Assembly: GCA_018673485.1 (NCBI GenBank)
Contig: JABHCP010000015.1
Location: forward strand, 25,529-89,528
DNA: 64,000 nucleotides
Origin: Candidatus Uhrbacteria bacterium
GTDB taxonomy: Bacteria > Patescibacteriota > Patescibacteriia > UBA9934
Direction: 5' to 3'
Shown: positions 11,535 through 56,800 of the stretch, in pieces
Position numbering within the stretch: the stretch's first letter is position 1
Layout: each line of letters opens with the position of its first letter
Notes under the pieces: model-generated
The model's input: the letters and a program-made list of their open reading frames with translations, nothing else
What the model was told of the DNA's origin: nothing
Database searches by the model: none
Made by a program: the position numbers and the translations under genes

Positions 11535-13064
11535 TTACTTCAATTTATCTTTCAAAACTTTTGCGCTTGTGGCGGGGTCGGCGTTGCCTTTTGTGATTTT
11601 CATGATTTGTCCGAGGAAGAATTGCATTAGTTTTTGTTCTCCGTTTCGGAATCGTTCAGCCTCGGCTGGGTTCTCTTCGATTACTGTATCGACGATTGAT
11701 AGCAATGCGTCCATGTCGTCCATGCGTGATGCCCCAAGATCCTCTACGACGTGTTCTGGGTCAGCTCCTGAGTCGAGCATCGCACCGAGCACCTCAAGCC
11801 CTTTAGTTCCAGTAACCTTGCCCTCGGCAAGCATTACGATGAATTCAGCAAAGTTTTCAGTAGTTACTTTCATTGTACGAATATCGATCTTTCGTTCAGT
11901 TAAAAGCCCCATGAGCTTGTTGAGCAACCAACTAGAAAATAGCTTATTGAGCTTCTTTCGATGTTCAAGGACATTGTCTTCGTTAACATCTTCACGTGAT
12001 TGCAACCACGACGCAAGCTCACTCATGGCGTTTTCTGTGTAGTCAGCAAGTGCTGGATCATCGATCATCTGCTTAATGTCTTCTTTTTTGAAGCCATACT
12101 CTGTTGCAAAGCGCTTTTTGCGATCCCATGGAAGTTCAGGAATGGTCCGCCTAATCTCCTCAGTCATTTCGGTCAGATCAAGTGGTGGTATATCTGGCTC
12201 GGGGAAGTATCGGTAGTCAGCAAAGCCCTCTTTTATTCGTTGTTCGTAGGTCATCTGCTTCACATCATTCCAACCACGAGTTGTGGTTTGTGATGGTGGA
12301 GTTCCCATTTTCCAAAGTTTAGTTTGACGTTGAATTTCGTGTTCAATAACGCGACCAATTGCTTTAAATGAGTTTACGTTTTTGATTTCAGTTTTAGGAT
12401 GCAGTATGTCGTCAAGCGGCTCGCCGTTATCATCAACCTCGCGCATCGAAATGTTTACGTCGCATCTAAGCTGACCTTTTTCCATATCACCATTGGAAAC
12501 TTGCAGACTTCTTACAAGAAGACGTATCTCTTGGGTGTATGCCTTTGCTTCCTCAGCGCTGTGAATGTCGGGTCGAGTTACGATTTCGCATAGCGGAGTT
12601 CCACCGCGATTAAAGTCGACATATGTTTTTCCGTCATCGCCGTGAATGTTCTTGGCGGCGTCTTCTTCTAAGTGAAGTCTTTCAAGCCGTACAATGCTTG
12701 ATCCTTCTCGCCCTGGTATTTCAATTTCAACCTCACCATTTTCCATGACAGGCAGGTCGAACTGAGAAATCTGATAAGCCTTGGGAAGGTCAGGGTAGAA
12801 ATAGTTTTTGCGATCAAATTTAGATCGTGTTGCAATTGTTCCGCGAAGTGCTAGTCCAACAAGGATGGCCCACCTTACAGCTTGTTCATTTGGCACAGGC
12901 AAAACTCCTGGGTGACCTAGGCAAACCGGACACACGTGCGTGTTTGGTGCTTCATCTTGGCCACGCGCTGAACAAGCACAAAACATCTTTGTGTTTGTTT
13001 TTAATTGTACGTGAGTTTCTAGTCCAATTACTGGTTGTAAGTTCATACGAGGCGATATTATCAC
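11535..13064 (-). CDS. gatB: Asp/Glu-tRNA(Asn/Gln) amidotransferase subunit B
   Basis: N-terminal PVIGLETHVQLKTNTKMFCACS typical GatB; 509 aa. Confidence 0.93.
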   Translation of the reverse strand: MIISPRMNLQPVIGLETHVQLKTNTKMFCACSARGQDEAPNTHVCPVCLGHPGVLPVPNEQAVRWAILVGLALRGTIATRSKFDRKNYFYPDLPKAYQISQFDLPVMENGEVEIEIPGREGSSIVRLERLHLEEDAAKNIHGDDGKTYVDFNRGGTPLCEIVTRPDIHSAEEAKAYTQEIRLLVRSLQVSNGDMEKGQLRCDVNISMREVDDNGEPLDDILHPKTEIKNVNSFKAIGRVIEHEIQRQTKLWKMGTPPSQTTTRGWNDVKQMTYEQRIKEGFADYRYFPEPDIPPLDLTEMTEEIRRTIPELPWDRKKRFATEYGFKKEDIKQMIDDPALADYTENAMSELASWLQSREDVNEDNVLEHRKKLNKLFSSWLLNKLMGLLTERKIDIRTMKVTTENFAEFIVMLAEGKVTGTKGLEVLGAMLDSGADPEHVVEDLGASRMDDMDALLSIVDTVIEENPAEAERFRNGEQKLMQFFLGQIMKITKGNADPATSAKVLKDKLK

Positions 13065-13080
13065 ATAGGAGCATCAGCGT

Positions 13081-13824
13081 CTATGATCGTGTTTCTTTGG
13101 CATTTTTGTAAAAAGTAACACCAAAAATTATGAATACTGGAATGAAGAATACATCAATTACGCGAAGCATAATTTGTTCCATTAGAGTTGCTGGATTGCT
13201 TATGAGAGCATCTACGCTTCCCCCGCTTAGCATTAATAGTAGTCCTGCGATGATAAGCATCGCTGCAGCGTATGGTATGAAAATTATTATATTACCCGCA
13301 AAGAGCCTGCCTAGTATCTTCCAGAATCGTCCCTTCACAAGCTCAAAACTCGCCCGTATCGCTTCTTTGATACTTTTCCGCTCTAGTACTAGTATCACCG
13401 ATGAAAAAGTGGCATAGACAGTAAATGCAACACCAGGGACAATCAGCAGTAAGAGTCCTAGTCCCGTGATTATCGAAAGTATTATGCTAAGTAGTAGTAG
13501 GGATACAGACACACCCCACGAATACGAGCTAATTTTACGAGCATCAATTCGTTTATTTGCTTGCACTAGCGCGGTGACTTGGATGATGGATGCCATTACC
13601 CAAATCACCATCAATAGATCAAGCGTCAGAACTACCGTTGTTATAATGTCTGCATAATCTGAGCCAAAGGTTATGGTCAGCAGCACATTGATTATCATCG
13701 GAATTAATAGCCAGGCACTGTAGCCAATAAAAAGACCTACATGGGAACGATATAGTTCCCATGTGGTTTTGACTAATTCAATAATAGATTTCATGTTCTT
13801 ATTTTGTTTTGAGGAGATTGTCAT
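13081..13824 (-). CDS. polytopic membrane protein, uncharacterised family (tandem paralogue 1)
   Basis: multiple TM helices; shares LVKGRFWKILGRLFAGNIIIF-type block with the next gene. Confidence 0.5.
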   Translation of the reverse strand: MTISSKQNKNMKSIIELVKTTWELYRSHVGLFIGYSAWLLIPMIINVLLTITFGSDYADIITTVVLTLDLLMVIWVMASIIQVTALVQANKRIDARKISSYSWGVSVSLLLLSIILSIITGLGLLLLIVPGVAFTVYATFSSVILVLERKSIKEAIRASFELVKGRFWKILGRLFAGNIIIFIPYAAAMLIIAGLLLMLSGGSVDALISNPATLMEQIMLRVIDVFFIPVFIIFGVTFYKNAKETRS

Positions 13825-14683
13825 AGATTATGTAATCAACAATGACAAATATCGGAGTAGATAGCACTAATACGCCGGTTCCCAAAAATAGTGAAAAGAT
13901 TGCGCTGGCCGCTTCCTGAGTTTCGCTTAGCGGGAAGAATGCATACTCGATGCCCAAAATTATCAAAGCGATAATGACATGCAAAAGAGCTACCCCAATG
14001 CCAAATACTATTTTTGATATGAGCAGTCTCCAGAGTGTTGCCCAGAATCGCCCAGTAACTAATTGGTACGATCCCTTCACAGCTGACATCCCTTTCTTTT
14101 CAGCGATCAGTCTTTCAAAGGCTGAGAATCCCAATTTTATCCCAAGTAAGATTAGTAGAACCAGAGCCGCCACAACGCCAATGAGCATGGTTAGGTTGCT
14201 AAATGCCCCCCAAAAGCTTCCGCCGTTGTAATAAATGTTTGTAAAAATTAAGATCATTCCGGGAACAAGTAATAGTAGGGGAAGTGCGGTAAGTACTGAC
14301 TTCAAGATCGCCACCCAAAAGTATGAGAAAAAGTTCGTCCAACCGTATTTGCGCAATGCCTTGAGTGAAGTTGGCTTTTTCTTATCTTGAGATTCGACTG
14401 CTTTAACTAAGTTTATATAAATCCAAATTGTTAAAACAGGTACGGCAATTAATGAAATTAGTACCCCAAGAATTAAGCCGATAACCAGCATTGCATCACC
14501 TTGGCCATTGAATAGAGAGGCGAGTGACATGATTTCACCACTCGGGACAATCAAGATTCGTAGCAAGACGAGTACAGGAATGATGAGTGCCCATAGTGAG
14601 ATTTTCATCAGTGGCTTAAAAAATGCGCTGTAGTGATCCCAGCTTCGGTCAATGATCTGTCCGATTGAAATTAGTTTACCCAT
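13799..14683 (-). CDS. polytopic membrane protein, uncharacterised family (tandem paralogue 2)
   Basis: LVTGRFWATLWRLLISKIVFG block similar to paralogue 1; 294 aa. Confidence 0.5.
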   Translation of the reverse strand: MGKLISIGQIIDRSWDHYSAFFKPLMKISLWALIIPVLVLLRILIVPSGEIMSLASLFNGQGDAMLVIGLILGVLISLIAVPVLTIWIYINLVKAVESQDKKKPTSLKALRKYGWTNFFSYFWVAILKSVLTALPLLLLVPGMILIFTNIYYNGGSFWGAFSNLTMLIGVVAALVLLILLGIKLGFSAFERLIAEKKGMSAVKGSYQLVTGRFWATLWRLLISKIVFGIGVALLHVIIALIILGIEYAFFPLSETQEAASAIFSLFLGTGVLVLSTPIFVIVDYIIYDNLLKTK

Positions 14684-15422
14684 AGTTTTTGTTTAAAATC
14701 GAAGTTATTATTTTTGTAATATGTTCTTCCATCTGTGCCTTTGGTTGATCGGTGCTAAAGTCATGCACACAGGTTCCGCGGGAAGTGAAGAGTTGTGAGA
14801 ACCATTCTGAGCGGAAGCGTTGATCAACTTTTTTTAGATAGTCGATATTCTCAAACACACCTTTTGAATCATCGTCTCTGGTGTCGAGTCTAGTCTGCAG
14901 TTTTTCAGGATCAATGTGCGTAAGGATCAGGTGGTCAGGTGGGTAGGTGAGCGCTAGGGCGTTTCCTGGTAGCGCTATTAGATCTTCAAGCGATGGTGCT
15001 TCTTTCATAATCGGCTGGTAGACGATCGAGGACGATACTGATCTGTCTTGGATGATGATTTTACCAGCGGCAAGCGCTGGAGCGATAAGACGTACGTATT
15101 GAATGTGTCGATCGAGCGAGAACGCTTGCGCGACAATATCACCGCTAGCACCGGAATAGGAAAGTTCGTGCCGTATCGCTGCACCTACCCAATACTTCGT
15201 TGGTTCAAATGTGAAATAAACGTCGTAGTCTGCAATGTCTTTGAATTTTGGTGGTTTATCATTCTCCCGCGTCCAATCATTCAAATCAAATATTTTCAAC
15301 CCTTTTTCTTCTAGTTTGGCTTTTATAGCGCGAATAAGCGTGGATTTTCCACTACCTGCCACTCCATCGATTACTATAAATTGACCAGTGTCATTGCGCA
15401 TAAAGTATTTACAGTATAGCAA
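14676..15422 (-). CDS. thymidylate-kinase-family (d)NMP kinase
   Basis: P-loop FIVIDGVAGSGKSTL, FTFEPT and IIQDRSVSSS (DRx) blocks resembling Tmk. Confidence 0.6.
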   Translation of the reverse strand: MLYCKYFMRNDTGQFIVIDGVAGSGKSTLIRAIKAKLEEKGLKIFDLNDWTRENDKPPKFKDIADYDVYFTFEPTKYWVGAAIRHELSYSGASGDIVAQAFSLDRHIQYVRLIAPALAAGKIIIQDRSVSSSIVYQPIMKEAPSLEDLIALPGNALALTYPPDHLILTHIDPEKLQTRLDTRDDDSKGVFENIDYLKKVDQRFRSEWFSQLFTSRGTCVHDFSTDQPKAQMEEHITKIITSILNKNYG

Positions 15423-15460
15423 AACAACGCTCCTTTCAGAACGTTGCTTGTTAATGAAAA

Positions 15461-15892
15461 TTATTGTCCAGTTGTACCGAATCCACCACGATCTTTTGCG
15501 ATCATTTCATCGACCTCCTGGAACTCTGGACGGGTAACAGGAGTGAATAGCCCTTGAGCGACTCGATCTCCTGCTTTTAGCTCGATAGGCTCATCGGTTA
15601 TATTTTTAACGAGCAATGCCAACTCATCATTCGGGCCACAATAATCAGAGTCGATTACGCCAACACTGTTTGCTAAGTCGATCCCTTTTTTAAACGGGTT
15701 GGACGATCGTGAAATGATTAAGAGAGCGTGATCATCCGGGACATTGATTACCAATCCAGTTCTGATTTTTGTTATTGATCGAGCCTCAATCATCGCATCT
15801 TCCACGATCGCAATATCAAAGGCGGCAGCACCAGAAGTTTTGTATTCCGGGATCTGGGCCAATGGATGGTTTCGTTTGAATTCTATTTTCAT
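15461..15892 (-). CDS. dut: trimeric dUTPase-family nucleotide pyrophosphatase (dUTPase or dCTPase/dUTPase)
   Basis: motif 3 GVIDSDYCG (Arg replaced by Cys) and C-terminal motif 5 RGGFGTTG; start taken at internal MKIEFK. Confidence 0.75.
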   Translation of the reverse strand: MKIEFKRNHPLAQIPEYKTSGAAAFDIAIVEDAMIEARSITKIRTGLVINVPDDHALLIISRSSNPFKKGIDLANSVGVIDSDYCGPNDELALLVKNITDEPIELKAGDRVAQGLFTPVTRPEFQEVDEMIAKDRGGFGTTGQ

Positions 15893-15949
15893 ATGAGGCC
15901 ATGTTATCAGAGGGGTTGAGTAGAGTGAAGGGATAAAGGGGATGAATTC

Positions 15950-15990
15950 AAAGCCTGACTTTACAAAGCCAGGCTTTGTCTCATTTTTTT
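15950..15990 (+). terminator. terminator-like hairpin plus T-run in the thyA-like 5' region (copy 2 of the AAAGCCTG...CAGGCTTT family)
   Basis: AAAGCCTG-ACTTTACAAAGC-CAGGCTTT followed by GTCTCATTTTTTT; ~65 nt upstream of the 16057 start. Confidence 0.35.
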
Positions 15991-16056
15991 GCGAACTTAG
16001 ACTAGATGTCCACACCTTGCTCTTGAGCACTTTTCTAGTTCTGTTAAAGTCGGAGT

Positions 16057-16908
16057 ATGACAGAGTTTGATAAAGCTTTTCGAGATGCTATTGCCCAGAT
16101 CATGCTTGAGGGCTATGACATATTTTCTGAGCGCTCCCAGATTGATACTAAAGCGTTTCCAGGAATTACCTATGAGTTAAACCCAAGTAAAGGTTTTCCG
16201 CTTTTAACTCTGCGCAGAATTCCGATTCAGATTTTTGTTTCCGAAGTTGTTTGGATGATCACGGGAGAAAAGGATATATCGTTCATGCAGGAGTTTACGA
16301 AGATTTGGGATGCTTTTGCAGAAGAGGATAATACGATGGCAGCAGCTTATGGCTACAGGTGGCGCCATCATTTTGGTCGCGATCAGTTGTTGGACCTTGT
16401 TGAGCATCTAAAGCGAGAGCCGACTTCTCGGCAAGCAGTAGTTATTATGTGGGATCCAGCAGATGATGGGCTTTTGTCTCCAAAAAAGAAAAATGTACCG
16501 TGTCCTTTTACTTTCAGTGTTAATACCATTGGAAACAAGTTGAACTTTCATCTGGGTGTCAGGTCCAATGATATGATGCTTGGAAACCCGCATGATACTG
16601 CTGGTTTCGCGCTCTTGCAGGCCATGCTTGCGCAAGAGATTGGTATGGAGGTTGGGCGGTATATTGTTTCTATTTCTCATGCACACATCTACGGAAATCA
16701 TTATGAGCAGGCGCACACCATGCTTGAGCGCATGCCACATATGCATGATGAGATTGTGTTACAATTGCCCGAGAGGTCTTTTCAAAGAGCGCTTCAAAGA
16801 GATGTTAGTTTAGTTCATGAAATAACGGATTCTCTAAAGGCTCAGTATAAACCTATGAAGAAATTAAAGAAGATGAATATCATTGTGGGAGAACATAGCA
16901 CTAAGTAA
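16057..16908 (+). CDS. thymidylate synthase (ThyA) family enzyme with Asp at the uracil-specifying Asn position; candidate dCMP methylase/hydroxymethylase or divergent TS
   Basis: alignable by eye to E. coli ThyA through GFPLLTLRR, YGYRWR, catalytic Cys in NVPCPF (PCH equivalent), VRSNDMMLGNPHDTAGFALL versus RSCDVFLGLPFNIASYALL (Asn177 -> Asp); unrelated C-terminal extension. Confidence 0.7.
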   Translation: MTEFDKAFRDAIAQIMLEGYDIFSERSQIDTKAFPGITYELNPSKGFPLLTLRRIPIQIFVSEVVWMITGEKDISFMQEFTKIWDAFAEEDNTMAAAYGYRWRHHFGRDQLLDLVEHLKREPTSRQAVVIMWDPADDGLLSPKKKNVPCPFTFSVNTIGNKLNFHLGVRSNDMMLGNPHDTAGFALLQAMLAQEIGMEVGRYIVSISHAHIYGNHYEQAHTMLERMPHMHDEIVLQLPERSFQRALQRDVSLVHEITDSLKAQYKPMKKLKKMNIIVGEHSTK

Positions 16909-17416
16909 TATGAACGTATTATTATTAGCAGCAGTCAGTGCTGACGGTCGGATTGCAAAGTCAGCGGATCATTTGGCTGACTGGACTAGCAAAGAAGACA
17001 AGCGTTTTTTTGTTTCCAAAACAAAAGAGGTTGGTGCTTTGATTATGGGTCGTAAGACTTATGACACAATCGGACGTCCACTTCCAAATCGGCTGAACAT
17101 GATTATGACGCGCGAGGCAGATGCTTCGAAGAATGTTCAAGGTGAGCTTGAGTACACATCTAAATCTCCGCGTGAACTCATCGATGAACTAAAAGAGCGT
17201 GGTTATGATTCTGTGGTAATTGGTGGTGGAACATCTATCTACTCATTGTTTTTGAAAGAAGGGTTGGTGACGGATTTGTATCTTACGGTTGAATCGTTGT
17301 TGTTTGGATCGGGTATTCCATTGGTTGACGGTGTACCTCAGTTGATCCTTGACCTTCAATCAGCGGAGAAGATTGGCGAGCAGTCAGTTTTATTGCATTA
17401 TAAAATGACACAGTAG
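16883..17416 (+). CDS. folA: dihydrofolate reductase
   Basis: LLAAVSADGRIA ... LIMGRKTYDTIGRPLPNRLNMIMTRE matches the DHFR signature; overlaps the TS-family gene. Confidence 0.8.
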   Translation: MWENIALSNMNVLLLAAVSADGRIAKSADHLADWTSKEDKRFFVSKTKEVGALIMGRKTYDTIGRPLPNRLNMIMTREADASKNVQGELEYTSKSPRELIDELKERGYDSVVIGGGTSIYSLFLKEGLVTDLYLTVESLLFGSGIPLVDGVPQLILDLQSAEKIGEQSVLLHYKMTQ

Positions 17417-17516
17417 TGTCATCCCGGCCCCCGAGCCGGGATCTATCGTTTATCGAATTCGATAGTTGATAGATTCCTGCTTTCGACCCGTCTGACGGGT
17501 TTCGCAGGAATGACAA
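17404..17516 (+). ncRNA. structured intergenic element: three hairpins enclosed by TGTCAT/ATGACA
   Basis: CCCGGC-CCCCGA-GCCGGG; ATCTATC...TATCGAATTCGATA...GATAGAT; TCCTGC-TTTCGACCCGTCTGACGGGTTTC-GCAGGA; outer TGTCAT...ATGACA. Confidence 0.3.
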
Positions 17517-17529
17517 GAAATATAATTAT

Positions 17530-18453
17530 ATGAATTTAGAGGCCCCACAAATTGAATATCCATACTTACCAGAAGGTAGAGTTTTGAAATATGTTGCCCA
17601 TGATCATCCGATGATGATTGAGGCTCGTAAGGCTCAAGAGGAATTTAGTGGAGACCCAAGCTATCCGGTCGGGTCTGTATTAGTTAAGGATGGCAAGATT
17701 ATCGCAAGCGCTGGAAATGGTTTTAATCGTGGCAGGCAGGTGCATATTTGTCCACGCCTTGTCTTAGACGTTCCAACAGGAACGCAATATGAATTATGTT
17801 CATTGCATTTAAATCAAGGACATTCTGAGCAGATGTGTGTAGATCAGGCTTGTGAAGCTGGAGCGGATACAGAGGGTGCTGATTTATATATGTACGGACA
17901 TTGGTGGGCGTGTGAGCCGTGTTGGAAGAAGTTGCTTGATGCAGGAATTCGAGATGTGTATGTTACCGATGACGCTCATATTCGATTTGCACGCGATAAA
18001 GTTTATTCAGCATTTTTAACACCTTCATCGAAATCGGTGTATATCGCAGGAACTATTTCAAGTTTACCTCAGAAAGATCGATATGAATATTTACGCTTGT
18101 ACGAACGATTTGATGAGACTGCGCGAGAGATGGGGCTTGAAAGTTTTGTACCACATATTCATTCTGATATTGAAAAGAGTGAGGGTCAGGACGTGAAGAG
18201 TGTTTTTGATGTGGGGGAGGGTGAGATTGCCAAGCGTGATGCATTTGTAGCTGAGGTTACACATCCATCACACGGTGTAGGAATGGAGCTCATGAGTGCA
18301 TATAAACTTGGTAAGTCGATAATATTATTGTCAAAAAAGGGAAGTGACGTCGGGCGATTTGTGAAAAGTATCCCCACCGTGGTTTATCATGCCGAGTACG
18401 AAGATTTTGATGAGGCGTGTAAGTTTTTGAAAAACATTTTGAAACAGCTCTAG
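17530..18453 (+). CDS. dCMP/cytidylate deaminase fused to a nucleoside 2-deoxyribosyltransferase / Rcl(DNPH1)-like domain
   Basis: zinc deaminase motifs HSEQMCV and CEPCWKKL in the N-terminal half; C-terminal half has NDT/Rcl-like THPSHGVGMELMSAYKLGKSIILL with the conserved Glu. Confidence 0.65.
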   Translation: MNLEAPQIEYPYLPEGRVLKYVAHDHPMMIEARKAQEEFSGDPSYPVGSVLVKDGKIIASAGNGFNRGRQVHICPRLVLDVPTGTQYELCSLHLNQGHSEQMCVDQACEAGADTEGADLYMYGHWWACEPCWKKLLDAGIRDVYVTDDAHIRFARDKVYSAFLTPSSKSVYIAGTISSLPQKDRYEYLRLYERFDETAREMGLESFVPHIHSDIEKSEGQDVKSVFDVGEGEIAKRDAFVAEVTHPSHGVGMELMSAYKLGKSIILLSKKGSDVGRFVKSIPTVVYHAEYEDFDEACKFLKNILKQL

Positions 18454-18455
18454 CT

Positions 18456-18878
18456 ATGAGTGCAGAGCGTCCAATGTATTGTGTTGGAGTGAACGTTTTT
18501 GTGATGCGTGATGGTAAGTTGCTTTTAGGACAACGAAAGCATTGTTCAGGTGAGGGATCGTGGGGTTTACCTGGTGGTCACTTAGAGCATGGTGAATCGA
18601 TGGAAAGTGCGGGTTTGCGTGAACTGATGGAAGAGACGGGGCTTCAGGCAGATTCGTTGACATTTGTGAATATTGTTAATGATCGTAGTAGGGGGCAGCA
18701 TTACATTCAGACAGGATTTTTGGCGAACAATATTTCTGGGGAGGTTGGTGTTATGGAGCCAGATCGGTGTGAATGTTGGGAGTGGTTTGATGTTGATTTA
18801 TTACCTAAGAATCTTTTTCACGGACATGAAGCTCAGATAGAAATATTTAGACAGGATAAAATATTTAGAGATAATTAA
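18456..18878 (+). CDS. Nudix (MutT-like) hydrolase
   Basis: Nudix box GGHLEHGESMESAGLRELMEETGL. Confidence 0.8.
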   Translation: MSAERPMYCVGVNVFVMRDGKLLLGQRKHCSGEGSWGLPGGHLEHGESMESAGLRELMEETGLQADSLTFVNIVNDRSRGQHYIQTGFLANNISGEVGVMEPDRCECWEWFDVDLLPKNLFHGHEAQIEIFRQDKIFRDN

Positions 18879-18881
18879 AAC

Positions 18882-18907
18882 ACAGCTCTAATCAAGCTGT
18901 TTTTTTC
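18882..18907 (+). terminator. intrinsic terminator after the Nudix gene
   Basis: ACAGCT-CTAATCA-AGCTGTTTTTTT. Confidence 0.6.
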
Positions 18908-20178
18908 TTGGAAAAGCATGAAGCGCGTAGACGAGTGTCGTACGCGCTTCTTACGAGGAGGGAGTCAGACGAAGCCCTCCTTGAGAATGTGGCCCATGTT
19001 ACCTCCGTGAGGTTAGAGGCCTGATTGTTTGGCAAATGCCATGCTCGCTTACCAGTCGTGTGACTGCGAGCGTTGGGTTTTGACGAGATTGATTACCGAG
19101 GCCCTCGTCATCTGGCCCCATATCGCGCATGATGCACCTCCTTGAAGGGGCCTAGCGATTTCATTGCAGCGCATTACCTAGCGCTGCGTTAGGACAGATT
19201 ATCCGATCTGCACAGGGATCTAAGTTAACCGCGTTTTGTCTCTGGGTGGCCAAGGTTGACGTCTCATGGCGACCTTGCGGGGCGGTGCTTCTGCACCCGA
19301 GCCAGCATGATACTTTTACGCACACTTACTGTGCACCTGCTACCAACGCTGCAACGCTGATTCAGGGGGAGCTATACTGTACTCCGTGTTTCGAGAGATG
19401 GCGAGTCTCCCATTTTTCATCTTGGGCGCCTTACTTCCCTTAAGGTGTCCGAGACACCAAGTATCAGATGAGGTACTTGTGCGTTGTGGCCCTGGTAGGC
19501 CTTAACGACATATCTGTAACTTGAGTACTTGCAGTGACTCATGAAACAGTGAGGTCTCCGTACTAATTTCCATTTCTCAAAGAGTTGAGCCATTTGCCCG
19601 CAGGCATATGATTCTTCTTGGATTGGCCTAAATGTTGGTTTGGCCCCAAATGCCCGTTCGAGACATTCTTGAAAAATCCTACTATTAATACGTTCTTCTC
19701 TCGCATTGTCGACTGGCGCAGTGCCTCTATTCGAGGACTTCTTCACGCGTGGAACCAGTTACCGTGTTATCCCTTCCCAGGGCACGGCCTCCACACGCTG
19801 TTTAGTATTCATCTTCCATCGGGGGGTTGGGGAAGAACATCTCTTCCTCCTGTGTGAGTTGTTCTGGCGCCTTTTTATGCGCCGTGTATGTGCCTACATT
19901 TTTACGCCCCGTTTCATTGGGGTGGGTTTGAGGGTTGTTGTGGTACCTGCCTTGCGGCAGGTGCTTGCTGCCGGTTGGCCCGGGCGGGCCAGTTACGTGG
20001 CAGCTCCTCAACCGAAGTGCGAAGAATACATAATTCCTCTCCTCCTTGTGTAGGATGAACAATATAGCACAAAAAAGACCTTTTGTCAAGGTAAAGTGCT
20101 AATTTTCGCGCTAAAATTAGGTGCAAAACAAGGGCCGCTCCGGCCCAAAGGGCGGAGCGGAAGTGCTGTGTGGGCCAT

Positions 20179-20568
20179 CTAGACCATGAGTGTTTTGACT
20201 GCCTCGACGATCTCTGGGAGAGATGAGTCGCCGGCAATGAAGGCTTTGGTTGCGTGACGCGCAACAAGCTCCATGCCAGCAGGATCACATCGGTCTGAGG
20301 CGATGAAGATGGGGATGTCGATCTCCATCACTCGGAGTGCAGCAGCAATGATGACACCAGCTTCGCCACGTACGTCGTGATGAATGTTTTCGCATTCGGT
20401 GAACATCATTCGTGTGATGATGAGGCCGGGTTGTGGGATTTGGAGTATCGCCTGTATACCTGCATAGGGGTTGAATGCCACCATGACTTCAGTGCCTTCG
20501 ATGGTGTCAATGTGGTGCTCAAGGCTTTCACGCCAGGGCAGATTCGAGGCGATGATAAGGATGCGCAT
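20179..20568 (-). CDS. hypothetical protein, possibly a degenerate CheY-like receiver domain
   Basis: 129 aa; beta-alpha pattern MRILIIASN...GLIITRMMF but no acidic pocket DD. Confidence 0.3.
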   Translation of the reverse strand: MRILIIASNLPWRESLEHHIDTIEGTEVMVAFNPYAGIQAILQIPQPGLIITRMMFTECENIHHDVRGEAGVIIAAALRVMEIDIPIFIASDRCDPAGMELVARHATKAFIAGDSSLPEIVEAVKTLMV

Positions 20569-20788: not shown

Positions 20789-21442
20789 TTAGAGTGAAAA
20801 TTTGTCTTTTAGGGCTTGTAGGTTTCCTCTTGTGAGTAGGTCTCGTTCTTCAGATTTATCAACTTTATATTTTGGTTCACCTGAGTTTGAGTATTTCGCT
20901 TCTGACAGCCCGTGCATTTGTGCTTCTTCACTCGTGAGAGGTTCGGACAACTCTTCGAAAATCACCTGGCAGATTCGTTCACCTGGGAAGATTCGTAGTA
21001 CTTGGTTTCCAGCCTCGTTTTTCATTGGGAATATCAAGTTGCCGTTATATCCGGTGTCGATGATTCCTGAGAGTGATAGGTTTATTCCTCTTCGGTTCGT
21101 GGAAGTTCGGGGGAAGAGGATTGCCATAAGGTCAGGCGCGTTCATTTCGATTCGTTCAAGACTTGTTGCTATAACGAATTCGTTTGGAAGAAGATCGAAA
21201 TATTGTCCGGGCTTGAGGGTTACTTCATCAAACTGTTCAGAGTGAATGTCGGTATCTTCTATTGAAACTTTGAGAGCTGCACGACCTTTTTCGGTTATGG
21301 TCCAGTTTTTTGGAATCAAGAACTTATATCCGAGCCTCAAATCAATAGCGTGTGGTTGCAATTGGAAATGATCGAGTCCTGGATCAAAAACGATATCATT
21401 GGATTTGATCCGTTCTAAAATTGCTTTTCGCGTTAAAATCAT
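20789..21442 (-). CDS. dcd: dCTP deaminase family protein
   Basis: MILTRKAILERIK...AIDLRLG...GIIDTGYNGNLIFPMKNEAGN...PGERICQVIFEEL matches Dcd; start taken at the Met aligning with the Dcd N-terminus (the 276 nt GC-rich ORF extension upstream is not credited). Confidence 0.8.
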   Translation of the reverse strand: MILTRKAILERIKSNDIVFDPGLDHFQLQPHAIDLRLGYKFLIPKNWTITEKGRAALKVSIEDTDIHSEQFDEVTLKPGQYFDLLPNEFVIATSLERIEMNAPDLMAILFPRTSTNRRGINLSLSGIIDTGYNGNLIFPMKNEAGNQVLRIFPGERICQVIFEELSEPLTSEEAQMHGLSEAKYSNSGEPKYKVDKSEERDLLTRGNLQALKDKFSL

Positions 21443-25933: not shown

Positions 25934-26041
25934 TTGATTATGCGCAAGAGTCTAGTTTTGTTTTAGCACATTGTGATTATAAAAGCGAGGACCCCCGTTC
26001 CGGAGAACGGGGGTCGAGGCGTTCGAGCAGAGCGAGGTCTG

Positions 26042-26725
26042 CTAGATGCGCAGGAGTTCCACCTTCACGATGGCCGTGAGGGTGCCCTGGTCGGTGACGT
26101 CGAGGATCGGGCAGTAGCCGCTGCCTTCGAGAGTCGTGAGCTTGTTGGTCACGGCCATGTACGTACCGTTGTCCTGGACTTCGCAGGAGACTCCGATCCA
26201 GTCCGAGCCGTCGTCGAGCTTGGCCTGGTAGGTGCCGTTGACGAAGCTGTGGCCAGACAGCAGTGGCAGGACCGTGAGGCCGTCATGGTCGGGAGAGCTG
26301 TAGATCAGCGTGCTCTCGTAGGCGTACCAGGCGTTGGCACGTTCCCAGCAGGCCATGTCCGAGGCCTCGCGCAGGACGGGGTGCACATAGAGGATGTGCA
26401 CGTTGCCGATGGAATCCTGAGCAGTACAGGTGGCCGTGTCCGGCACCTGGGTCAGCGGGTAGGACTCCTCTGGGATCGTGGTGACGATGGTCAGGCTGCT
26501 GCCCTCGATCTCGCAGGTCAGGTAGTCCCAGTCGCTCTGGACTACGGTGTGCTCGTCGGGCTGTTCCGGGGTCGGGATGATGCCTTTCCAGCCGCGGAAG
26601 GTGATGGTCTGCTCGGTGCCTTCGAAGACGAGGGTCGGGCAGAGGTTGATGTCAATGTGGCGCTTGCGCACCTCAGCCTGGGCGGAGGAGGCGAACACGA
26701 TGGTGAACAGGATGAAGGCCTTCAT
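26042..26725 (-). CDS. hypothetical secreted protein (high-GC)
   Basis: clean signal peptide MKAFILFTIVFASSAQA; 227 aa; the opposite-strand 435 aa ORF looks like a GC-driven artefact. Confidence 0.5.
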   Translation of the reverse strand: MKAFILFTIVFASSAQAEVRKRHIDINLCPTLVFEGTEQTITFRGWKGIIPTPEQPDEHTVVQSDWDYLTCEIEGSSLTIVTTIPEESYPLTQVPDTATCTAQDSIGNVHILYVHPVLREASDMACWERANAWYAYESTLIYSSPDHDGLTVLPLLSGHSFVNGTYQAKLDDGSDWIGVSCEVQDNGTYMAVTNKLTTLEGSGYCPILDVTDQGTLTAIVKVELLRI

Positions 26726-26782
26726 GGTTCCTCTGAGACTTGTGTGTTGGGGTGGTTCGATGTTGATGAAGGAGCAGAAGGG

Positions 26783-27199
26783 CTACTCGTACGAATAGTC
26801 GCTGCCGGTGGGGTCGGTGGTCTGGACGTAGCCGCGACAGTCGCACGTGGAGTAGGCTGCGCAGCCATCCTGCGATTCGCAGAAGAAGACCGCATCGGAG
26901 AAGCCGAGCGCTTCACAGTGTGCGATACACATCTCATGGTGGTCGTCACAGGTCTCGCACTCGCACCCCGCGGCCTTGGCCGAGATGGTCACGGTGAGGA
27001 TCATCGCAGTGGCGAGACGCAGGATCCAGATCTTCTTGTCGAGGATCGTAGCGCCGATGCGACGCAGGATCCAGGTCTGCTTGCTGAGGATTGCAGCAAT
27101 GGTGCATTGCAAGGTCCAGATCTTTTGGTCGAGCATCGCGGAGCCGATGATGCGCAGGGTCCGAAGCCGTTCTCTCCAGGTCATCTTCTCGGGGAGCAT
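26783..27199 (-). CDS. hypothetical Cys-rich protein containing three 15-aa repeats encoded by a 45 bp tandem repeat
   Basis: repeats LDQKIWTLQCTIAAI / LSKQTWILRRIGATI / LDKKIWILRLATAMI; C-terminal CECETCDDHHEMCIAHCE. Confidence 0.3.
   Translation of the reverse strand: MLPEKMTWRERLRTLRIIGSAMLDQKIWTLQCTIAAILSKQTWILRRIGATILDKKIWILRLATAMILTVTISAKAAGCECETCDDHHEMCIAHCEALGFSDAVFFCESQDGCAAYSTCDCRGYVQTTDPTGSDYSYE
27016..27165. repeat. ~45 bp tandem repeat, about 3.3 copies
   Basis: GACGCAGGATCCAG(A/G)TCT(T/G)CTTG... repeated at 27016, 27061, 27106. Confidence 0.6.
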
Positions 27200-27353
27200 A
27201 CGCTCTCCTATACCTGCTCAAAGATTGAGCTAGGCGTTTGGGTTAAGCCGATGTTGGCCCGCGGATTTAACTACATTTAGCGGAATTTGTCAATGGTATA
27301 TACCAAAACAACTGCCTTGCGGCAGTCGTTATTGATCGATTTGTGTATTTTAT

Positions 27354-37525: not shown

Positions 37526-37706
37526 AGCACTGAATTTCGTCGAGATTGTAGCATGAGCCCTTTTTGCTGTCAATAAACGATCCTGGCCTATGGACAGGAT
37601 GCTTGGTATGGTGTACTTTAGAGCGTTCTGCGCGGAAAATCGTGCGGTACGACACGTCCCTTTTACCCCAATGTTCGAGAAAACCCACGCACGGAGGAGC
37701 AATTCA

Positions 37707-39902
37707 ATGCGTACGATTTATCTGATCCTGGTCGCTATTCTGGTGGCCGGCTGTCTCCCCGCTCTTCCGGAGTATGACCCTTCGGTAGAGAAGTACGATC
37801 TGCCACCGGCAGACGCTGATGGTGATGGCTACGAGTCTGATGTCGACTGCGACGATGACGATGCCAGCATCTATCCTGGCGCAGAAGAGATCTGCGACGG
37901 CCAGGATAACGACTGCGACGAGCTCACCGACGAGGATGTGGCTCAGAGCTTCTACCTCGACAGCGACGGTGACAGCTATGGCGATCCCAACATGATCATT
38001 CAGGCCTGCGAGGCCTCAAGCGACTACGTTGACAACGCTGACGACTGCGACGATGATGATCAGGACACCTACCCGGGTGCACCTGAGCGCTGCGACGGCG
38101 ATGACAACGACTGCGACGAGCAGATCGACGAGGACCTGGTGGAAACCTGGTATCTCGATTCCGACGGCGATAGCTTCGGCAACGTCGAGGAATCGATCGA
38201 ATCCTGTGATCCGTCAAGCGCCTATGTCGCGAATCCTGACGATTGCGATGACGCTGACGCCGAGGTTTACCCCGAGGCTGATGAGTATTGCGATCTGATC
38301 GACAACGACTGCGACAGCATGGTCGACGAAGACGATGCACTCGATGCCCAGACCTGGTACTTCGACGAGGATGGCGATGGCTACGGGCTCGACGATGAAT
38401 CGATCCAGAGTTGTCAGTGGCCTGAGGGCTATGCTCGCCACAGTGGTGACTGCGATGACGGCGACATAGCCTTCAATCCCGCAGCACTCGAGGACGATTG
38501 CACCGATCCCAACGACTACAACTGCGATGGCTCAACCGGCTATGCCGACGATGACAGCGATGGTTTCGCAGCCTGTGAGGAGTGCAATGACTCAGATGCG
38601 AGCATCAATCCCGCCGCGACCGAGATCTGCGACGAGCTCGACAACGACTGTGATGGCCTCATCGACGATGAGGATGACAGCCTCGACGCATCGACCGGTT
38701 CGATCTTTTACCTCGACGGCGACGGCGACGGCTACGGCGACTCAAGCGTGGCCGACGATGCCTGCGAGCCCTTGTCTGGCTACGTGGCCGACGCGACCGA
38801 CTGCGACGACACCGATGCGGACATCAACCCTGACGCGACTGAGGTCTGCGACGAGGACGATGTCGATGAGGACTGCAACGGCTACGCTGACGACGATGAT
38901 GTCAGTGTGGATGTGTCCACGCAGACAGATTGGTTCGATGACGGCGACGGCGATAGCTACGGTGACGCCGCTTCGCTCGTCACTGCGTGTGAGTCCCCGG
39001 ACGCACATGCAGTCACCAACGATTCGGACTGCGATGATACCGACTCCACAATCAACCCCGATGCGACCGAGGTCTGCGACGAGGATGATGTCGATGAGGA
39101 CTGCGACGGTCTGATCGATGACGACGACCCCAGTGTCGATGTTTCGACCGGCCCCACCTTCTACCTGGACTGGGATGGCGACGGCTACGGTGCCGATGAC
39201 TACACGGTCACGGCTTGCGACGCTCCTTCTGGGTACGTTGAGGACAGCACAGATTGCGATGATGCTGACGTAGACGTGAGTCCCGCTGCGACCGATGAGC
39301 AGGCCACGGCCTGGGATGAGGACTGCGATGGAGACGATGGACGCGCAGACGGTTACGAGTACGTCACCAGCTATTATGGTAACTGGTATGCCTCGGGCAG
39401 CAGCTTGGTGGAGGAGTCCACCTCCAATGAGTTTTCCACTCTCGAAAGTGGAATTACTAGTTGGTACGATGTTGCTGGTTCCAGCCTCGTGGTTTCCACG
39501 CATGTGTTCTCTTCGGTCTATTCCGGTGAAATGGATGTGATCGAGTTTCCTGAGAACACGGGGACACATCCGCTCGATGGATGTGTACGCGCGGATGATC
39601 TTTCCACTAGTCTGAGCGCAGGAGTGGATTACGGGTTCGTCTTTGTGGTGGCCAATACCAGTACCACTGGTTCGACAACCATCTTCGTAGCCGAAGGTGA
39701 TGGATACGAGTACCATGTCTCTGGAGAGGGGGATTACATCATGGGTGCGCTTGCGCTCAATGCTGGTGATGAGGTCTTGGTGGGCGAGGCTTTCACTGCC
39801 TCGGACAGCTCTGAAGATCTGTTGATCTGTGCCTTGGGTAACAGTGGCGCTGATGAGATGGACTTGCGGATTAGCCACTTTGGTATCTACTCGGTGAACT
39901 AG
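37707..39902 (+). CDS. high-GC lipoprotein built from Cys/Asp-rich putative metal-binding repeats (myxobacterial-type DxDxDGYxxxxDCDDxDxxxxPxAxExCDxxDNDCD modules)
   Basis: lipoprotein signal [16 protein letters not shown]; at least 8 repeat modules; GC content far above flanking genes. Confidence 0.6.
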
Positions 39903-40189
39903 AGCGATGGCTCAGAAAACAACGAAAACCCCCTGATTCAGGGCCTAGCGGTGCTCCGCAAAGGTTGCTGGATTGGGGGATTGTGCTTTGGGCAATGTTG
40001 AGCTTCCAAGGTAGCTATTGACAAAATAGCTAAAATTTGGTAAAAAAAGGCGTTATTTTGTAGTGTTTTTTGTTTTATGTAAGTGGTATCTTTCCTTTTA
40101 CATAAGGCCAAAAGCTTCTTTCACATCTACACTTTCCCCCATTGCCACGCTGGCCTGCGTGACAATAAACCCCCAGCAAGGAGAATGTC

Positions 40190-42058
<1,869 letters not shown>

Positions 42059-42157
42059 ACCCAGCCCCAGACACGGCCCTCGAGCCGGCAGATGGAAAGC
42101 ATGCACTGCATGTGGACCTCTGCCGGCTCTTCTGCTTTTCTGATACAATATAGGTGA

Positions 42158-43687
42158 ATGATTAATCTGAAGGAGACTTATCAAGCAAGTGATCAATACG
42201 CACGCTTTGCCGCGTTTGTTCTTTTTGGTATTTCACTCGCAGCTTTGGTTGGCTCAATAGTATTCTCCCCATCTCTTATTTTGGGAGTTGTGTTTGCGAT
42301 AGCGGTTTTGGTGATGAGTTTTGTGCGGCCAACTTGGTCATTAGCGTTCCTGCTTGTTTATCTGCCATTTGAGCCATTTCTGCTGAAGTGGATTTCAGAT
42401 GACATTTATTTATATGCCCGTTATTTTTCAGAGTTATTAATTTATTTGCTCGTTGTTGTTGTTTTTTGGAAGTTTGCCAGTGGTCAGCTTAAGTTAAAAC
42501 AGTCGCCAATCGACGTTATATTCATCCTATTTTTAATTGCATTATTAACATCAGCGCTTGTAAATTTTGTTGATCCAACAGTCGCAGTGCTAGGAATTCG
42601 TCAGATCATTCGCTTTATTCTTTTGTTCTTTGTGACGATTTATTTAAATCCAACAGACAAATGGATCAAGTCTTTGGTTTATATAATGTTTATTATTTTA
42701 GGATTTGAGGTTTTGCTCGGAGTAGGGCAAGTGTTTTTTGGAGAAATGCTAGATAGCTTTTTACTACCATCAGAAGCCCGAGCTTTTGGTGAGATTCAGC
42801 TTACATCAGGAACTGTACAATTTTGGGACCATGGACAGCGGATTTTTGGAACTCTTGGTCGTTATGACAGGCTGGGAACTTTTATGGCATTTTTTATGCT
42901 GATCGGAGTTTCAATGCTTTATGAGCCGAGACTGCGTAAGTATCGATCGCTGTTGATTTTCTTACTAGTTCTTTCTATTTTTACGTTAGCAATGACATAT
43001 TCTCGCTCGGCGTGGTTTGGTTTTGTTTTGGGATTTTTGTTTATTGCCATATGGGCCAAGAAAGATAGGCGAGTAGTATGGGCCGTAGGAGTGGCTTTGG
43101 GCGCGATCGCTGTATATCTAGCTATATCTGGGCTTATTGTAAGCAATTTATTTGACGTTGCCGATCAAACCGTAATTGAAAGGTTTTTTGAAGCGTTTTC
43201 TTATGAAAGGTGGCGAGGTGAGTATTATGGATTAGGGCGACTTTATTGGATTGTGCAGACTGTCATTACCGTAATTCCGGCAGCGTTTATTTTTGGATTT
43301 GGTCCAGCAACATATGGTGGAGGTGCAGTGGCAGCATTGGGAAATACAGAAGTTTATGATCAGCTAGGATTGTCATTTGGTGTTTATGGAACAGAGGGTT
43401 ACATTGATAACAATTGGTTTAGTTTGTGGGGTGAGACTGGAACACTTGGATTAACAATATACATAGTGATGTATGTGACTTTGTTTTTGATATGTTTAAA
43501 AGTATGGCGAAGGTCAAAAAAATCATTTACTAGAGCTTTAGCACTTGGCGTAGCAGCAGCAATGATTGCTATTGTACTTAATTCATTTTTAGCTACTTTT
43601 TTGGAAGTGAGAACCCTAGCTCCATACTTGTGGGTATTTACTGCATTGGTAGTTATCATGGGGGTACGCGAAAAATTAATTGAGTAA
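42158..43687 (+). CDS. O-antigen ligase / Wzy-like polytopic membrane protein
   Basis: ~12 TM helices; block [25 protein letters not shown] typical of O-antigen ligase family. Confidence 0.55.
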
Positions 43688-53857: not shown

Positions 53858-56800
53858 TTGATTATGCAAAAAGCATTACAAAATCGAGTATTCGCAGTCG
53901 TTACAATCGCTGCAATGTTGCTCGGTTCCTTGAGCGCAGTTCTCGTGCCATCTACAGCTTCAGCTGCTGGTGCAGGAGATCTGATCAAGAACGAGTCTCT
54001 CTCAACGGTGTATTACTACGCTCCAGATGGAACGCGGTTTATATTCCCTAACGAGAAGACTTACATGACTTGGTATCAGGACTTTGACGAGGTAGAGACT
54101 ATCTCTGACAGCGACCTAGCTGATATCGCAATGGGTGGAAACATCGTTTACCGCCCAGGAACAAGCTGGATTAAGATCCAGTCAAACCCTAAGGTTTACG
54201 CAGTAGCTACTGATGGAACAATCCACTGGATTGAGACAGAAGACGTTGCTGTTGATTACGCTGGAGCAGACTGGGCAGAATATGTTCAGGACGTACCAGA
54301 CGTATTTTTCCCAGATTACGATTCAGGAACATCTCTAACTGCAGCAACCGCATATGACGGACTGATGTACATGGATGGATCTGATTATTACATTTCATGG
54401 GGTGGCGAAAAGTTGCTAGTAAGCGACCTTGACGCTAACAACATGGTAGAAGACTTCTACCTAGCTGGAGAAGGGATCGATGACAGCGCACTAACTGCTG
54501 GTGATGAAGTCACTGGTGAGGACGCAGCTATCGTTGATGCTTCACAACAGGGTGGAGTAGAAGCAACTGAGGTTACAGGTGGAGATGTTGATTTCTCACT
54601 TTCATCTTCAAACCCAGCAGGAACTTCAGTTCCTACAAACGCTAACACTGTTGAAGTTTTGAGCTTTGACATCGAAGCAGGTGACGAGGCAACTGAGGTT
54701 GACCAAGTTGCTGTTAAGATGGTTGGTCTTTCATCAACAACAGATGTTACAAATGTTTACCTTTACGAAGGTTCAACACGATTGACTGAAGCTCGTTCGG
54801 TTAATTCATCAACTCGAAAAGCAACTTTTGGAAGCCTTAATCTAGCACTTGACGCAGGTGAAACACGAACAATTACTGTTCGCGTTACTATCGATGCTTC
54901 AGCTGGAGATGAGCTACAATTTGCTGTTTACGAGGTAGATGATGTAACTGCAGACGGAGACGTTTCAGGAAGCTTCCCACTTGAAGGAAATACTTTTGAG
55001 GTATCGGGAACAACAATCGGAACAGTTACTATTATTGATACAGGTTCAGTAAGCAACCCTTCATTGGGTGCAAATGATGCAGAAATTGGATCATTCAAGG
55101 TTACAACTGCTACTGAGGCTGGAAACGTACAGTCATTGACATTGAAGATCGCAAACGCTGACGATCACGATGACTACCGAATGTTAGCTGATGACGAAGA
55201 AGTAGCAACAGGTGAGTACATTGGTGACAAGCTTGTTGTATTCGACTTCGATGAGGATTACGAAATCAGCAAGGGTGGAAGCGAAATCTTCACAGTTACA
55301 GCTGATATTGGTGGAGATGCTGCTGACACAATCACTATGTACATGGATAACGCCATTGACGTCATGGTAGAAGGTGCTGAGTATGGCTTTGCTATGGCAG
55401 CAACTATTACCGGTTACGATCAAGGTACATGTACAACTGACGGAGATGAGTGTAACTACTCAACAATCCAGGGTGGAGAAGTAACATTTGACACTTATGG
55501 ACCAACTGCAGGTGATATCCGAACTAACAGTCAGGATCAGACCTTGCTCGAGTTCACACTTACATCAATGCAGGACATTACTGTTAAAGATCTAGACATT
55601 GTTATCGTAGCTAATGATGAAGAAGAGCTAACTAGCACTGATCCATTTAATGAGGTGGATGACGAAGATAGTGATGGAGCTGATGACGCTGGAGTACAAG
55701 ACGCAACTGGAGATGACGATGGACTTGTAAACACAGACGGAGAAGCAAACATTACTGACATCCGAATCGTTAACGCAGACACAGGCGATACTCTTATGGG
55801 GCCGCTTGAGCTTGATTCATTGGTCGCAGCAGCAGATGATGCTGGTCAAATTATTGATTTCACAGACGACTTTGATATGGATGCAGGTGAAACGTTGACT
55901 CTAGCAGTTGTGGTTGACGTTGATGACACAATTACATCTGGAACAGAAATTGGAGCTATCATTGATATCTCTGGATTCGTTGCAGAAGATGTAAATGGAG
56001 ACACTCTTACAAACTCAACAGACGTTGTTCCAACATCTGATATGTATGAGGGTGCTCAAAAGGCTACTTCCGCTTCATTGACAATTGCACTTTCTACTGT
56101 TCCTGGTGATGTAACAACTATCCACGGAATGGAAGATGTAGGTGTTGGTAAGTTCAACATTACCGGTGGAGACGCAGGTCAGGTTGATATCTCAAGCATC
56201 ACAATGGATGTTTACCTTCACGATGATGATGTAGATGGTTCTGATGATGACTTCTCACAGGCTGGAAACTGTTCAGCCGCTGAGTGTGCTGTAATCGCTG
56301 CTATTGTAACCGTTACAGACTATCTAGAATCATGTTCTATCTATGACATTGACGGAAACTTGCTTGACGGTCCTAAGTCACCATCATCTAGCGGATCATT
56401 GCTAGTATTTGATGACGTTGACTGGACAATTGAATCCGGTGAGTCTGAGGTTTTGGATCTTCACTGTGATTTCTCAAACCCAGTTCTTTCCACAACAGTA
56501 TATTTTGCATTCGACATTGACGATATGTCAGAGTTGGTTATTGCAGAGGACCAGGATGGAACAGATGTTGACCCAACAACTGATTCACCAAACGGTGATT
56601 ACTCAACGCCAACAAACGTTGTAACGCTTGCTGCTTCTGGATCAATCGCAATTACTGCAGATTCAAGCATGCCTAGTGCTGATATCTTGCTAACAGGAAC
56701 AACAGACAACCATGTTGCTTCTTACAACATTGCTGCTACAAATGAGGACTTTGAAGTTACAATTCTAACCTTCCATGAGGAGCAGTCTGAGGATGACACC

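Follow-up and report, generated by a model that had tools for sequence, protein, structure and literature searches.

To our knowledge, two routes to thymidylate (dTMP) are recognised in cells, those of ThyA and of ThyX, both of which start from deoxyuridylate (dUMP); a route in which deoxycytidylate (dCMP) is converted into 5-methyl-dCMP and then into dTMP is known to us only from phages of the Xp12 type. For Xp12-infected cells 'a new thymidylate biosynthesis' was described by Kuo et al. 1982, as far as that work is cited in PMC12088426, and the same passage from dCMP via 5-methyl-dC to dT was proposed again for phages with 5-methylcytosine (5mC) (bioRxiv 10.1101/2024.12.05.627091). In published mutants of thymidylate synthase (TS), N177D/N229D turns the enzyme into a dCMP methylase, and D179N reverses the dCMP hydroxymethylase (dCH) of phage T4. 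The Xp12 enzyme and five metagenomic enzymes of the D type produced 5-methyl-deoxycytidine (5mdC) in vivo (bioRxiv 10.1101/2024.12.05.627091). Here we analyse a stretch of 64,000 nucleotides (the window) from Candidatus Uhrbacteria bacterium (assembly GCA_018673485.1, contig JABHCP010000015.1, positions 25,529 to 89,528), in which a ThyA homologue (16057-16908) stands among other genes of nucleotide metabolism. Its active site is, judged from aligned residues, that of the dCMP-methylating enzyme of phage Xp12. Because of this active site we read the locus, with a probability of roughly 0.5, as a housekeeping locus of dTTP synthesis in which the order of the steps would be swapped, dCMP being methylated first and deaminated afterwards, before dTMP is phosphorylated. 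Such a pathway would be best described as a chromosomal housekeeping version, widespread in the candidate phyla radiation (CPR), of the route known from phages. At least 500 other CPR species appear to have a homologue with this active site under the annotation 'thymidylate synthase'.

The original prediction for this DNA had placed an Asp at the substrate-specifying Asn of TS, and profile alignment confirms Asp, not Asn, at this position. In HMMER alignments with solved TS structures, RSNDMMLGNPHDTAGF of the window protein aligns with RSADVFLGVPFNIASY, and the Asp falls at E. coli Asn177 / L. casei Asn229; against the window protein, the structure of the L. casei N229D mutant (1njc) scores above the wild type. 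A MAFFT alignment with E. coli ThyA gives the same Asp and agrees with the other residues named earlier (catalytic Cys, Arg166/Ser167/Asp169, Glu58 and Tyr94 conserved, Phe for Trp83): R21, E58, W80, Y94, R126, C146, R166, S167, D169, H207 and Y209 are kept; in place of H147, W83, F176 and N177 the window protein has Pro, Phe, His and Asp, respectively.

Neither Asp177 nor Pro147 varies among the relatives. Both occur in all 120 close homologues listed (57-93% identity, mostly 277 aa) and at 80 of 80 GTDB loci, these being the best of the 519 loci that encode relatives of the ThyA homologue in a scan of one genome per GTDB species; the neighbourhood counts given below refer to the same best 80. 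Such invariance indicates that Asp177 is not a product of chance. Asp169 is likewise kept in 120 of the 120 homologues, and the columns of the catalytic core, of Ser167 and of Arg126 are invariant in the family alignment, the latter two residues suggesting a deoxy substrate. An exhaustive search of 1.84 billion cluster representatives with the ThyA homologue yielded 13,606 matches; among the 150 nearest, 98 carry the Cys-Pro...Asp signature and 24 the canonical Cys-His...Asn.

The homologue passes TIGR03284 (141.7 bits, cut-off 108.35) and lies far under the cut-offs of all five NF00249x ThyA equivalog models (e.g., 156 versus 327). Its AlphaFold2 model (pLDDT 90.5, pTM 0.91) superposes on full-length TS at TM 0.80-0.86, with T4 dCH outside the top 50 structural matches. 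A long, novel C-terminal tail had also been claimed: the tail is there, its novelty is not, since the hydrophobic end K-M-x-I-A-[LVI], which resembles K-A-P-V-A-I of TS, is conserved throughout the family. Past this end, the window protein and its 93% identical relative (P0001) carry six extra residues, GEHSTK (16891-16908). In TS a free C-terminal carboxylate matters for the closure of the active site, and for this reason the extension might affect the activity of the enzyme. The window family thus resembles E. coli and L. casei ThyA in its fold, in Cys146, Glu58, Tyr94, Arg166, Ser167, Asp169, His207 and Tyr209, in its hydrophobic tail and in the tight coupling to folA, but differs by the invariant Asp177, Pro147 and Phe83, at an identity of 30%.

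The best phage matches of the ThyA homologue are Ruegeria phage Tedan, Achromobacter Steinhofviruses and Xanthomonas phage Xp12, and all three groups have LPYD and VPCP motifs and a dCMP-family deaminase gene after that of the enzyme; Xp12 additionally has a DHFR-like gene. Blastp scores amount to 160 bits for Tedan, 158 for Xp12, 155 for 83-24, 120 for E. coli ThyA and 35 for T4 gp42. In a neighbour-joining tree the Uhrbacteria clade is nested in a large Pro147/Asp177/Phe83 clade together with the phage enzymes, apart from canonical TS and T4 gp42. With the Xp12 enzyme (QNN97214, 38% identity) the window protein has Asp177, Pro147, Phe83, the KNVPCP loop and a long C-terminal region in common; the residue three before the catalytic Cys is Asn in both, where T4 has Asp, if the register is taken from the Cys in this indel-bearing loop. 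The earlier argument that the adjacent DHFR favours a reductive methyl reaction as in Xp12 gains from this comparison, in which the closest characterised relatives are Xp12-type dCMP methylases. The kinship with Xp12, the P147/F83/KNVPCP residues, the tail and the adjacency of DHFR suggest that the product is probably methylated and not hydroxymethylated.

The T4-like, hydroxymethyl framing of the original prediction is not sustained by these comparisons. T4 gp42 likewise belongs to the ThyA family, has Asp at the specificity position and acts on dCMP, but it is only 22% identical, has Thr147 and Val83 and carries an acidic residue three before the Cys. It releases tetrahydrofolate (THF) and needs no DHFR, and in T4 dCH the C-terminal tail, by which TS closes its active site for the transfer of hydride, is missing (PMC6400193). 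A T4-type dCMP hydroxymethylase was rejected on account of the 35 bits to gp42, the Asn instead of Asp/Glu three before the Cys, and the presence of the tail. Neither the Dut nor the Dcd-like protein of the window is homologous to T4 gp56. Two further candidates from the family fail on active-site residues. Ser167 is replaced by Ala and Arg126 by Lys in the ribo-specific MilA and BcmA (PMC5175136), so that a CMP hydroxymethylase of a nucleoside-antibiotic pathway is discarded for the invariant Ser167 and Arg126 of the window family. The 5-hydroxy-dCMP synthases of the RB69/DLP3 type carry D169N, and hydroxymethylases Asp/Glu at the L143 position (PMC13326640); a 5-hydroxy-dCMP synthase does not match the retained Asp169.

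The ThyA homologue had been predicted to lie in a group of six adjacent genes with a Dcd-family gene 2 kb away. Seven open reading frames (ORFs) of the families named were found at or near these positions, with the boundaries of Tmk, Dut, DHFR and the Dcd-like protein refined from the gene calls of the source:

14676-15401, minus strand: tmk, dTMP kinase (PF02223, E 2e-23; TIGR00041 95.9 bits, cut-off 83.25)
15461-15892, minus strand: dut, trimeric dUTPase, 143 aa (PF00692; TIGR00576 106.5 bits, cut-off 102.55)
16057-16908, plus strand: ThyA-family protein with Asp177/Pro147/Phe83, predicted Xp12-type dCMP C5-methyltransferase, i.e., 5-methyl-dCMP synthase (PF00303, 182 bits, E 1e-53)
16910-17416, plus strand: folA, dihydrofolate reductase (PF00186)
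17530-18453, plus strand: deaminase-Rcl fusion gene, with the two domains of the following two lines
17530-18024, plus strand: dCMP-deaminase (DCTD-type) domain of the fusion (PF00383, E 5e-12; HSE...CEPC motifs)
18025-18453, plus strand: Rcl/DNPH1-like 2'-deoxynucleoside 5'-phosphate N-glycosidase domain, C-terminal half of the fusion (weak PF05014)
18456-18878, plus strand: Nudix hydrolase (PF00293, E 7e-21)
20789-21442, minus strand: Dcd-family protein without catalytic Glu, predicted dNTP pyrophosphatase (PF22769; TIGR02274 94.5 bits, cut-off 92.8)

Among the enzymes around the ThyA homologue, DHFR is by its sequence a credible dihydrofolate reductase, which aligns over its full length with T. 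maritima DHFR 1CZ3 (104 bits, E 4e-29) and is 32% identical to the DHFR-like protein of Xp12. The folA genes of CPR bacteria complement E. coli delta-folA in a study that treats the partner gene as an ordinary thyA (PMC11974145). Dut, to judge from its full-length alignment to solved dUTPases (E 1e-22), is a canonical trimeric dUTPase; its gene call is 143 aa, the 189-aa frame in the list of ORFs beginning too early. The motif 3 DYCG, to which attention had been drawn, is present in Dut but carries no meaning, since the corresponding motif of E. coli Dut is DYQG. In Tmk, FSLDR aligns to FAASR of S. aureus TMK and DRSVSSSIVYQ to DRYIDSSLAYQ, residues that are conserved in the Tmk family. In the S. 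aureus enzyme we take F66 to stack on the thymine and R70 to bind O4, with S97, Y100 and Q101 aligned and the Gln presumably binding N3. From the TIGR00041 score and the retention of these thymine-recognition residues we conclude that Tmk is a dTMP kinase. It is the only kinase of the cluster, in which no promiscuous kinase of dNMPs is apparent.

The deaminase-Rcl protein has 100% identity to the NCBI protein HN358_02425. In its deaminase domain the zinc-binding and catalytic residues lie in HSE...CEPC; 111 of 120 family members have both the HxE and the Cys motif. The domain is 29% identical to the deaminase adjoining the Xp12 methylase. Deaminases of the DCTD type accept 5-methyl-dCMP (PMC12088426), and phage deaminases beside D-type TS are 5mC-selective and were proposed as a source of dT nucleotides (bioRxiv 10.1101/2024.12.05.627091). 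The C-terminal domain matches rat and human Rcl-DNPH1 at E 3e-4 and retains the catalytic Glu and the phosphate-binding Ser (VAEVTHPSHGVGMEL versus VAEVTQPSLGVGYEL). It differs from Rcl/DNPH1 in being fused to a dCMP deaminase and stays under the gathering score of PF05014 (Nuc_deoxyrib_tr; 24.1 bits, gathering score 28.8). The catalytic motif (PSxGxGxE) occurs in 59 of 81 long family members, and those of about 236 aa have only a truncated or degenerate version of the domain, which implies that the domain cannot be essential to the pathway. One may speculate that it destroys dUMP or surplus 5-methyl-dCMP. The Nudix gene had been counted as part of the system, but it is found at just 10 of the 80 loci and is probably a neighbour, not a core member. 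A role as NudG-like 5-methyl-dCTPase was rejected, as its resemblance to NudG/MutT is generic, with scores well under the cut-offs of these families (40.7 bits, cut-off 156, for NudG).

The Dcd-family protein has the fold family and the nucleotide- and phosphate-binding motifs of E. coli Dcd and of bifunctional Dcd-Dut, and barely passes TIGR02274, but has lost residues of theirs: its GNLIFPMKN aligns to GCIVLEFYN of Dcd, so that Pro takes the place of the catalytic Glu138, and no HVTAH motif is left. Among 44 Dcd-like homologues linked to the cluster in diverse CPR genomes the Glu138 position is taken by Pro in 43, by Ser in one and by Glu in none. The homologues closest to the Dcd-like protein among viruses (Methanobacterium virus PhiF1, halovirus HGTV-1 and an E. 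coli Kuravirus) all have the Glu. The replacement of the catalytic Glu means that the Dcd-like protein cannot be a dCTP deaminase, contrary to what its family name suggests, and that the canonical supply from dCTP via dUTP to dUMP would be broken in cluster-bearing genomes. The protein still has the PR[TS]S motif for phosphate binding and, in IDxGY, the Asp of the dUTPase superfamily. Most likely, therefore, the protein acts as a dNTP pyrophosphatase, converting dCTP to dCMP or serving as a second dUTPase.

The distribution of the cluster provides further insight into its nature. The best 80 loci all belong to CPR/Patescibacteria by name, or to automatically labelled metagenome-assembled genomes (MAGs) with the same cluster, and include Uhrbacteria, Kerfeldbacteria, Gracilibacteria, Peribacteria, Moraniibacteriota, Altimarinota and others. 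Many cluster-bearing GTDB MAGs are titled 'uncultured Gammaproteobacteria bacterium' or 'uncultured Candidatus Saccharibacteria bacterium', which look like automatic mislabels. Many of the 80 loci are cut by contig ends; among them DHFR lies directly 3' in 68, a dCMP-family deaminase accompanies the gene in 59, Tmk in 46, the Dcd-like gene in 40, Dut in 34 and an Rcl domain in 25. From these counts the conserved core is the Xp12 triad of TS(D), DHFR and deaminase. Fusions among metagenomic proteins, namely deaminase-TS(D) (P0142), MazG/PRA-PH-TS(D) (P0204) and DHFR-deaminase (P0334), support a functional link between TS(D), deaminase and DHFR. A further metagenomic protein (P0137) joins an HNH endonuclease to TS(D).

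In relatives with 57-73% identity the gene order is fixed: ThrRS, MiaB, MiaA, GatB and two membrane proteins lie upstream, followed by Tmk, (Dut), ThyA(D), DHFR, deaminase and the Dcd-like gene, with L1, L11, NusG, SecE and GyrB downstream. This core-chromosome position, which recurs across distant CPR genomes, argues for a housekeeping cluster and not a prophage; a prophage or mobile island was rejected for the synteny among core genes, the unremarkable composition and the lack of Xp12-phage relatives of Tmk and the Dcd-like protein. One relative on a 653-kb contig is without Dut between Tmk and ThyA(D) and has two extra genes (12537-14109 of that locus), a 216-aa frame without Pfam match and a 317-aa SET-domain protein, that separate the deaminase from the Nudix gene. 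A full-text literature search of incomplete coverage found no description of such a pathway in CPR or in any cellular genome.

If the locus is read as a swapped-order route to dTMP, the ThyA homologue would use methylene-THF to convert dCMP into 5-methyl-dCMP and leave dihydrofolate, which the DHFR encoded directly 3' would reduce. The DCTD-type deaminase would then turn 5-methyl-dCMP into dTMP, and Tmk would phosphorylate dTMP to dTDP. The Dcd-like protein, as a pyrophosphatase only, may supply dCMP from dCTP or clear dUTP, and Dut would hold dUTP low. For the Rcl-like domain we envisage an optional role, perhaps the destruction of dUMP from off-target deamination, for which no consumer would exist, and the Nudix hydrolase would be incidental. 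The substrates and products, like the order of methylation and deamination, are predictions from these gene assignments.

The same triad of TS(D), deaminase and DHFR, with the same proposed chemistry from dCMP through a 5-methyl-dC nucleotide to a dT nucleotide, is found in Xp12. In contrast to the phage module, that of the window is chromosomal, vertically inherited and located among ribosomal and translation genes of a cellular lineage; it comprises in addition Tmk, Dut and the Glu-less Dcd-like protein, and its deaminase is fused to the Rcl-like domain. No relatives of Tmk and the Dcd-like protein were found in phages of the Xp12 type. Xp12 DNA is fully 5mC. For the window module, the core-chromosome locus, the presence of DHFR, the usual deaminase and the canonical Tmk residues suggest that 5-methyl-dCMP is an intermediate of dTMP synthesis and not a DNA base. 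The earlier proposal of a modified-cytosine pathway that alters cellular DNA is thus not what a housekeeping locus beside ribosomal-protein genes would lead one to expect.

Several observations weigh against a swapped-order thymidylate route and have to be considered. Some activity on dUMP, as ascribed to Hardy & Nalivaika 1992, is said to remain in N177D mutants, and the neighbouring deaminase, Dut and Tmk equally fit the ordinary sequence of dCMP, dUMP and dTMP if the Asp enzyme accepts dUMP. The deaminase shares no more than about 29% identity with that of Xp12, and BLAST of the window deaminase against the phage Tedan deaminase gave no significant similarity. Mono- and triphosphates also have to be distinguished: mSCD-B5, the sole characterised phage 5mC-deaminase, prefers 5mdCTP and acts on the triphosphate, not on the monophosphate (bioRxiv 10.1101/2024.12.05.627091). 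Deamination could therefore happen at the level of 5mdCTP, and would in that case need a 5mdCMP kinase, which is not evident at the locus. The indel in the loop before the catalytic Cys, across which the register was taken from the Cys, weakens the assignment of the L143 equivalent, and the neighbour-joining tree is a simple one without support values. A scan that covered about 1.0 Mb of CPR sequence, and no whole genome, showed neither a second thyA nor a thyX.

The alternative that survives best, though we consider it unlikely, is an ordinary thymidylate pathway, in which the Asp enzyme is a dUMP-dependent or dual-specific TS and the deaminase and Dut make dUMP. The enzyme passes PF00303 and TIGR03284, has the full TS fold with its tail and all catalytic residues except N177 and H147, and occupies a housekeeping position with Dut, Tmk and DHFR; a dCMP deaminase beside ThyA would also be expected of a route of the Gram-positive type. 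Against this stands the invariance of Asp177 and Pro147 in more than 200 sequences, where canonical enzymes have Asn and His, and the exchange of Asn for Asp is the experimentally established switch from dUMP to dCMP. Moreover, validated dCMP methylases, and not TS, are the enzymes with which the protein groups and to which it has the higher scores; it stays below all NF00249x cut-offs, and its Dcd-like partner has lost the residue needed to convert dCTP to dUTP.

More doubtful is a pre-replicative modification as in Xp12, in which 5-methyl-dCTP is incorporated, 5mC replaces most or all cytosine and some of the pool flows to dTTP through the deaminase. Xp12, with its fully 5mC DNA, has the same triad of TS(D), deaminase and DHFR, 5mdCTP is the substrate of the one phage deaminase characterised so far, and a Dcd-like protein without deaminase activity, plus the Nudix hydrolase in some genomes, could remove dCTP like a phage dCTPase. 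The sole kinase of the cluster, Tmk, nevertheless keeps the Arg binding thymine O4 and the Gln binding N3, no promiscuous dNMP kinase is apparent, and neither Tmk nor the Dcd-like protein has relatives in Xp12-type phages. Sequence alone cannot show a modification of DNA, and we know of no cellular organism with wholesale replacement of a DNA base, which likewise speaks against this explanation. For 5mdCMP to enter the DNA of E. coli as 5mdC, co-expression of T4 gp1, a promiscuous kinase, was necessary (bioRxiv 10.1101/2024.12.05.627091).

A hydroxymethylase or small-molecule pathway of the T4 gp42, MilA/MilB or BcmA/BcmB type, in which 5-hydroxymethyl-(d)CMP is made and the Rcl-like domain frees the modified cytosine, is very improbable: Asp at N177 is common to T4 dCH, MilA and BcmA, and the MilB and BcmB N-glycosidases fall in the same superfamily as the Rcl-like domain, but the window family shows neither the Ala at S167 and Lys at R126 that mark MilA and BcmA as ribo-specific nor an acidic residue three before the Cys, and it has the C-terminal tail; gp42 reaches only 35 bits, and most loci have no Rcl domain or a degenerate one. 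Hydroxymethylases, moreover, release THF and can do without DHFR, whose gene is the one found most constantly beside the ThyA homologue.

If 5-methyl-dCMP synthesis indeed precedes deamination in these bacteria, a third arrangement of dTMP synthesis, from dCMP through 5-methyl-dCMP to dTMP, would operate in a large part of a major bacterial radiation. Models of CPR nucleotide metabolism would change, and hundreds of CPR annotations as 'thymidylate synthase' and 'dCTP deaminase' would have to be corrected. The route would suggest a lowered exposure to dUMP and dUTP, and dUMP-analogue inhibitors such as FdUMP might fail on these CPR bacteria. It would also raise the question of the direction of enzyme transfer between phages and CPR hosts, and the fact that folA is so widely kept in the reduced CPR genomes would find a simpler explanation than in the 'public goods' idea (PMC11974145). 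Should 5mC moreover replace most or all cytosine in their DNA, wholesale exchange of a canonical DNA base would be met for the first time in cellular organisms.

Further features of the window lie outside the cluster. The approximately 1.3 kb 3' of the Nudix gene (18879-20178) contain only short ORFs, up to a 129-aa ORF at 20179-20568 (minus strand), for which a Pfam search gave no match. Scans of the whole 64-kb window with Rfam at the gathering threshold and for tRNAs returned no match and no tRNA gene, respectively, and ORFs of 1404 aa and 435 aa (53858-58072 and 25973-27280) are without a Pfam match at E 1e-4. The region 37590-42196 has a GC content of 57-65%, compared to 41-47% in the rest of the window. 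A 770-aa ORF on its plus strand (37590-39902) carries six Cu-binding MopE repeats (PF11617, E 6e-52), and is followed at 40127-42196 by long ORFs without Pfam match that overlap on both strands. The region as a whole is probably that of a large repetitive secreted protein.

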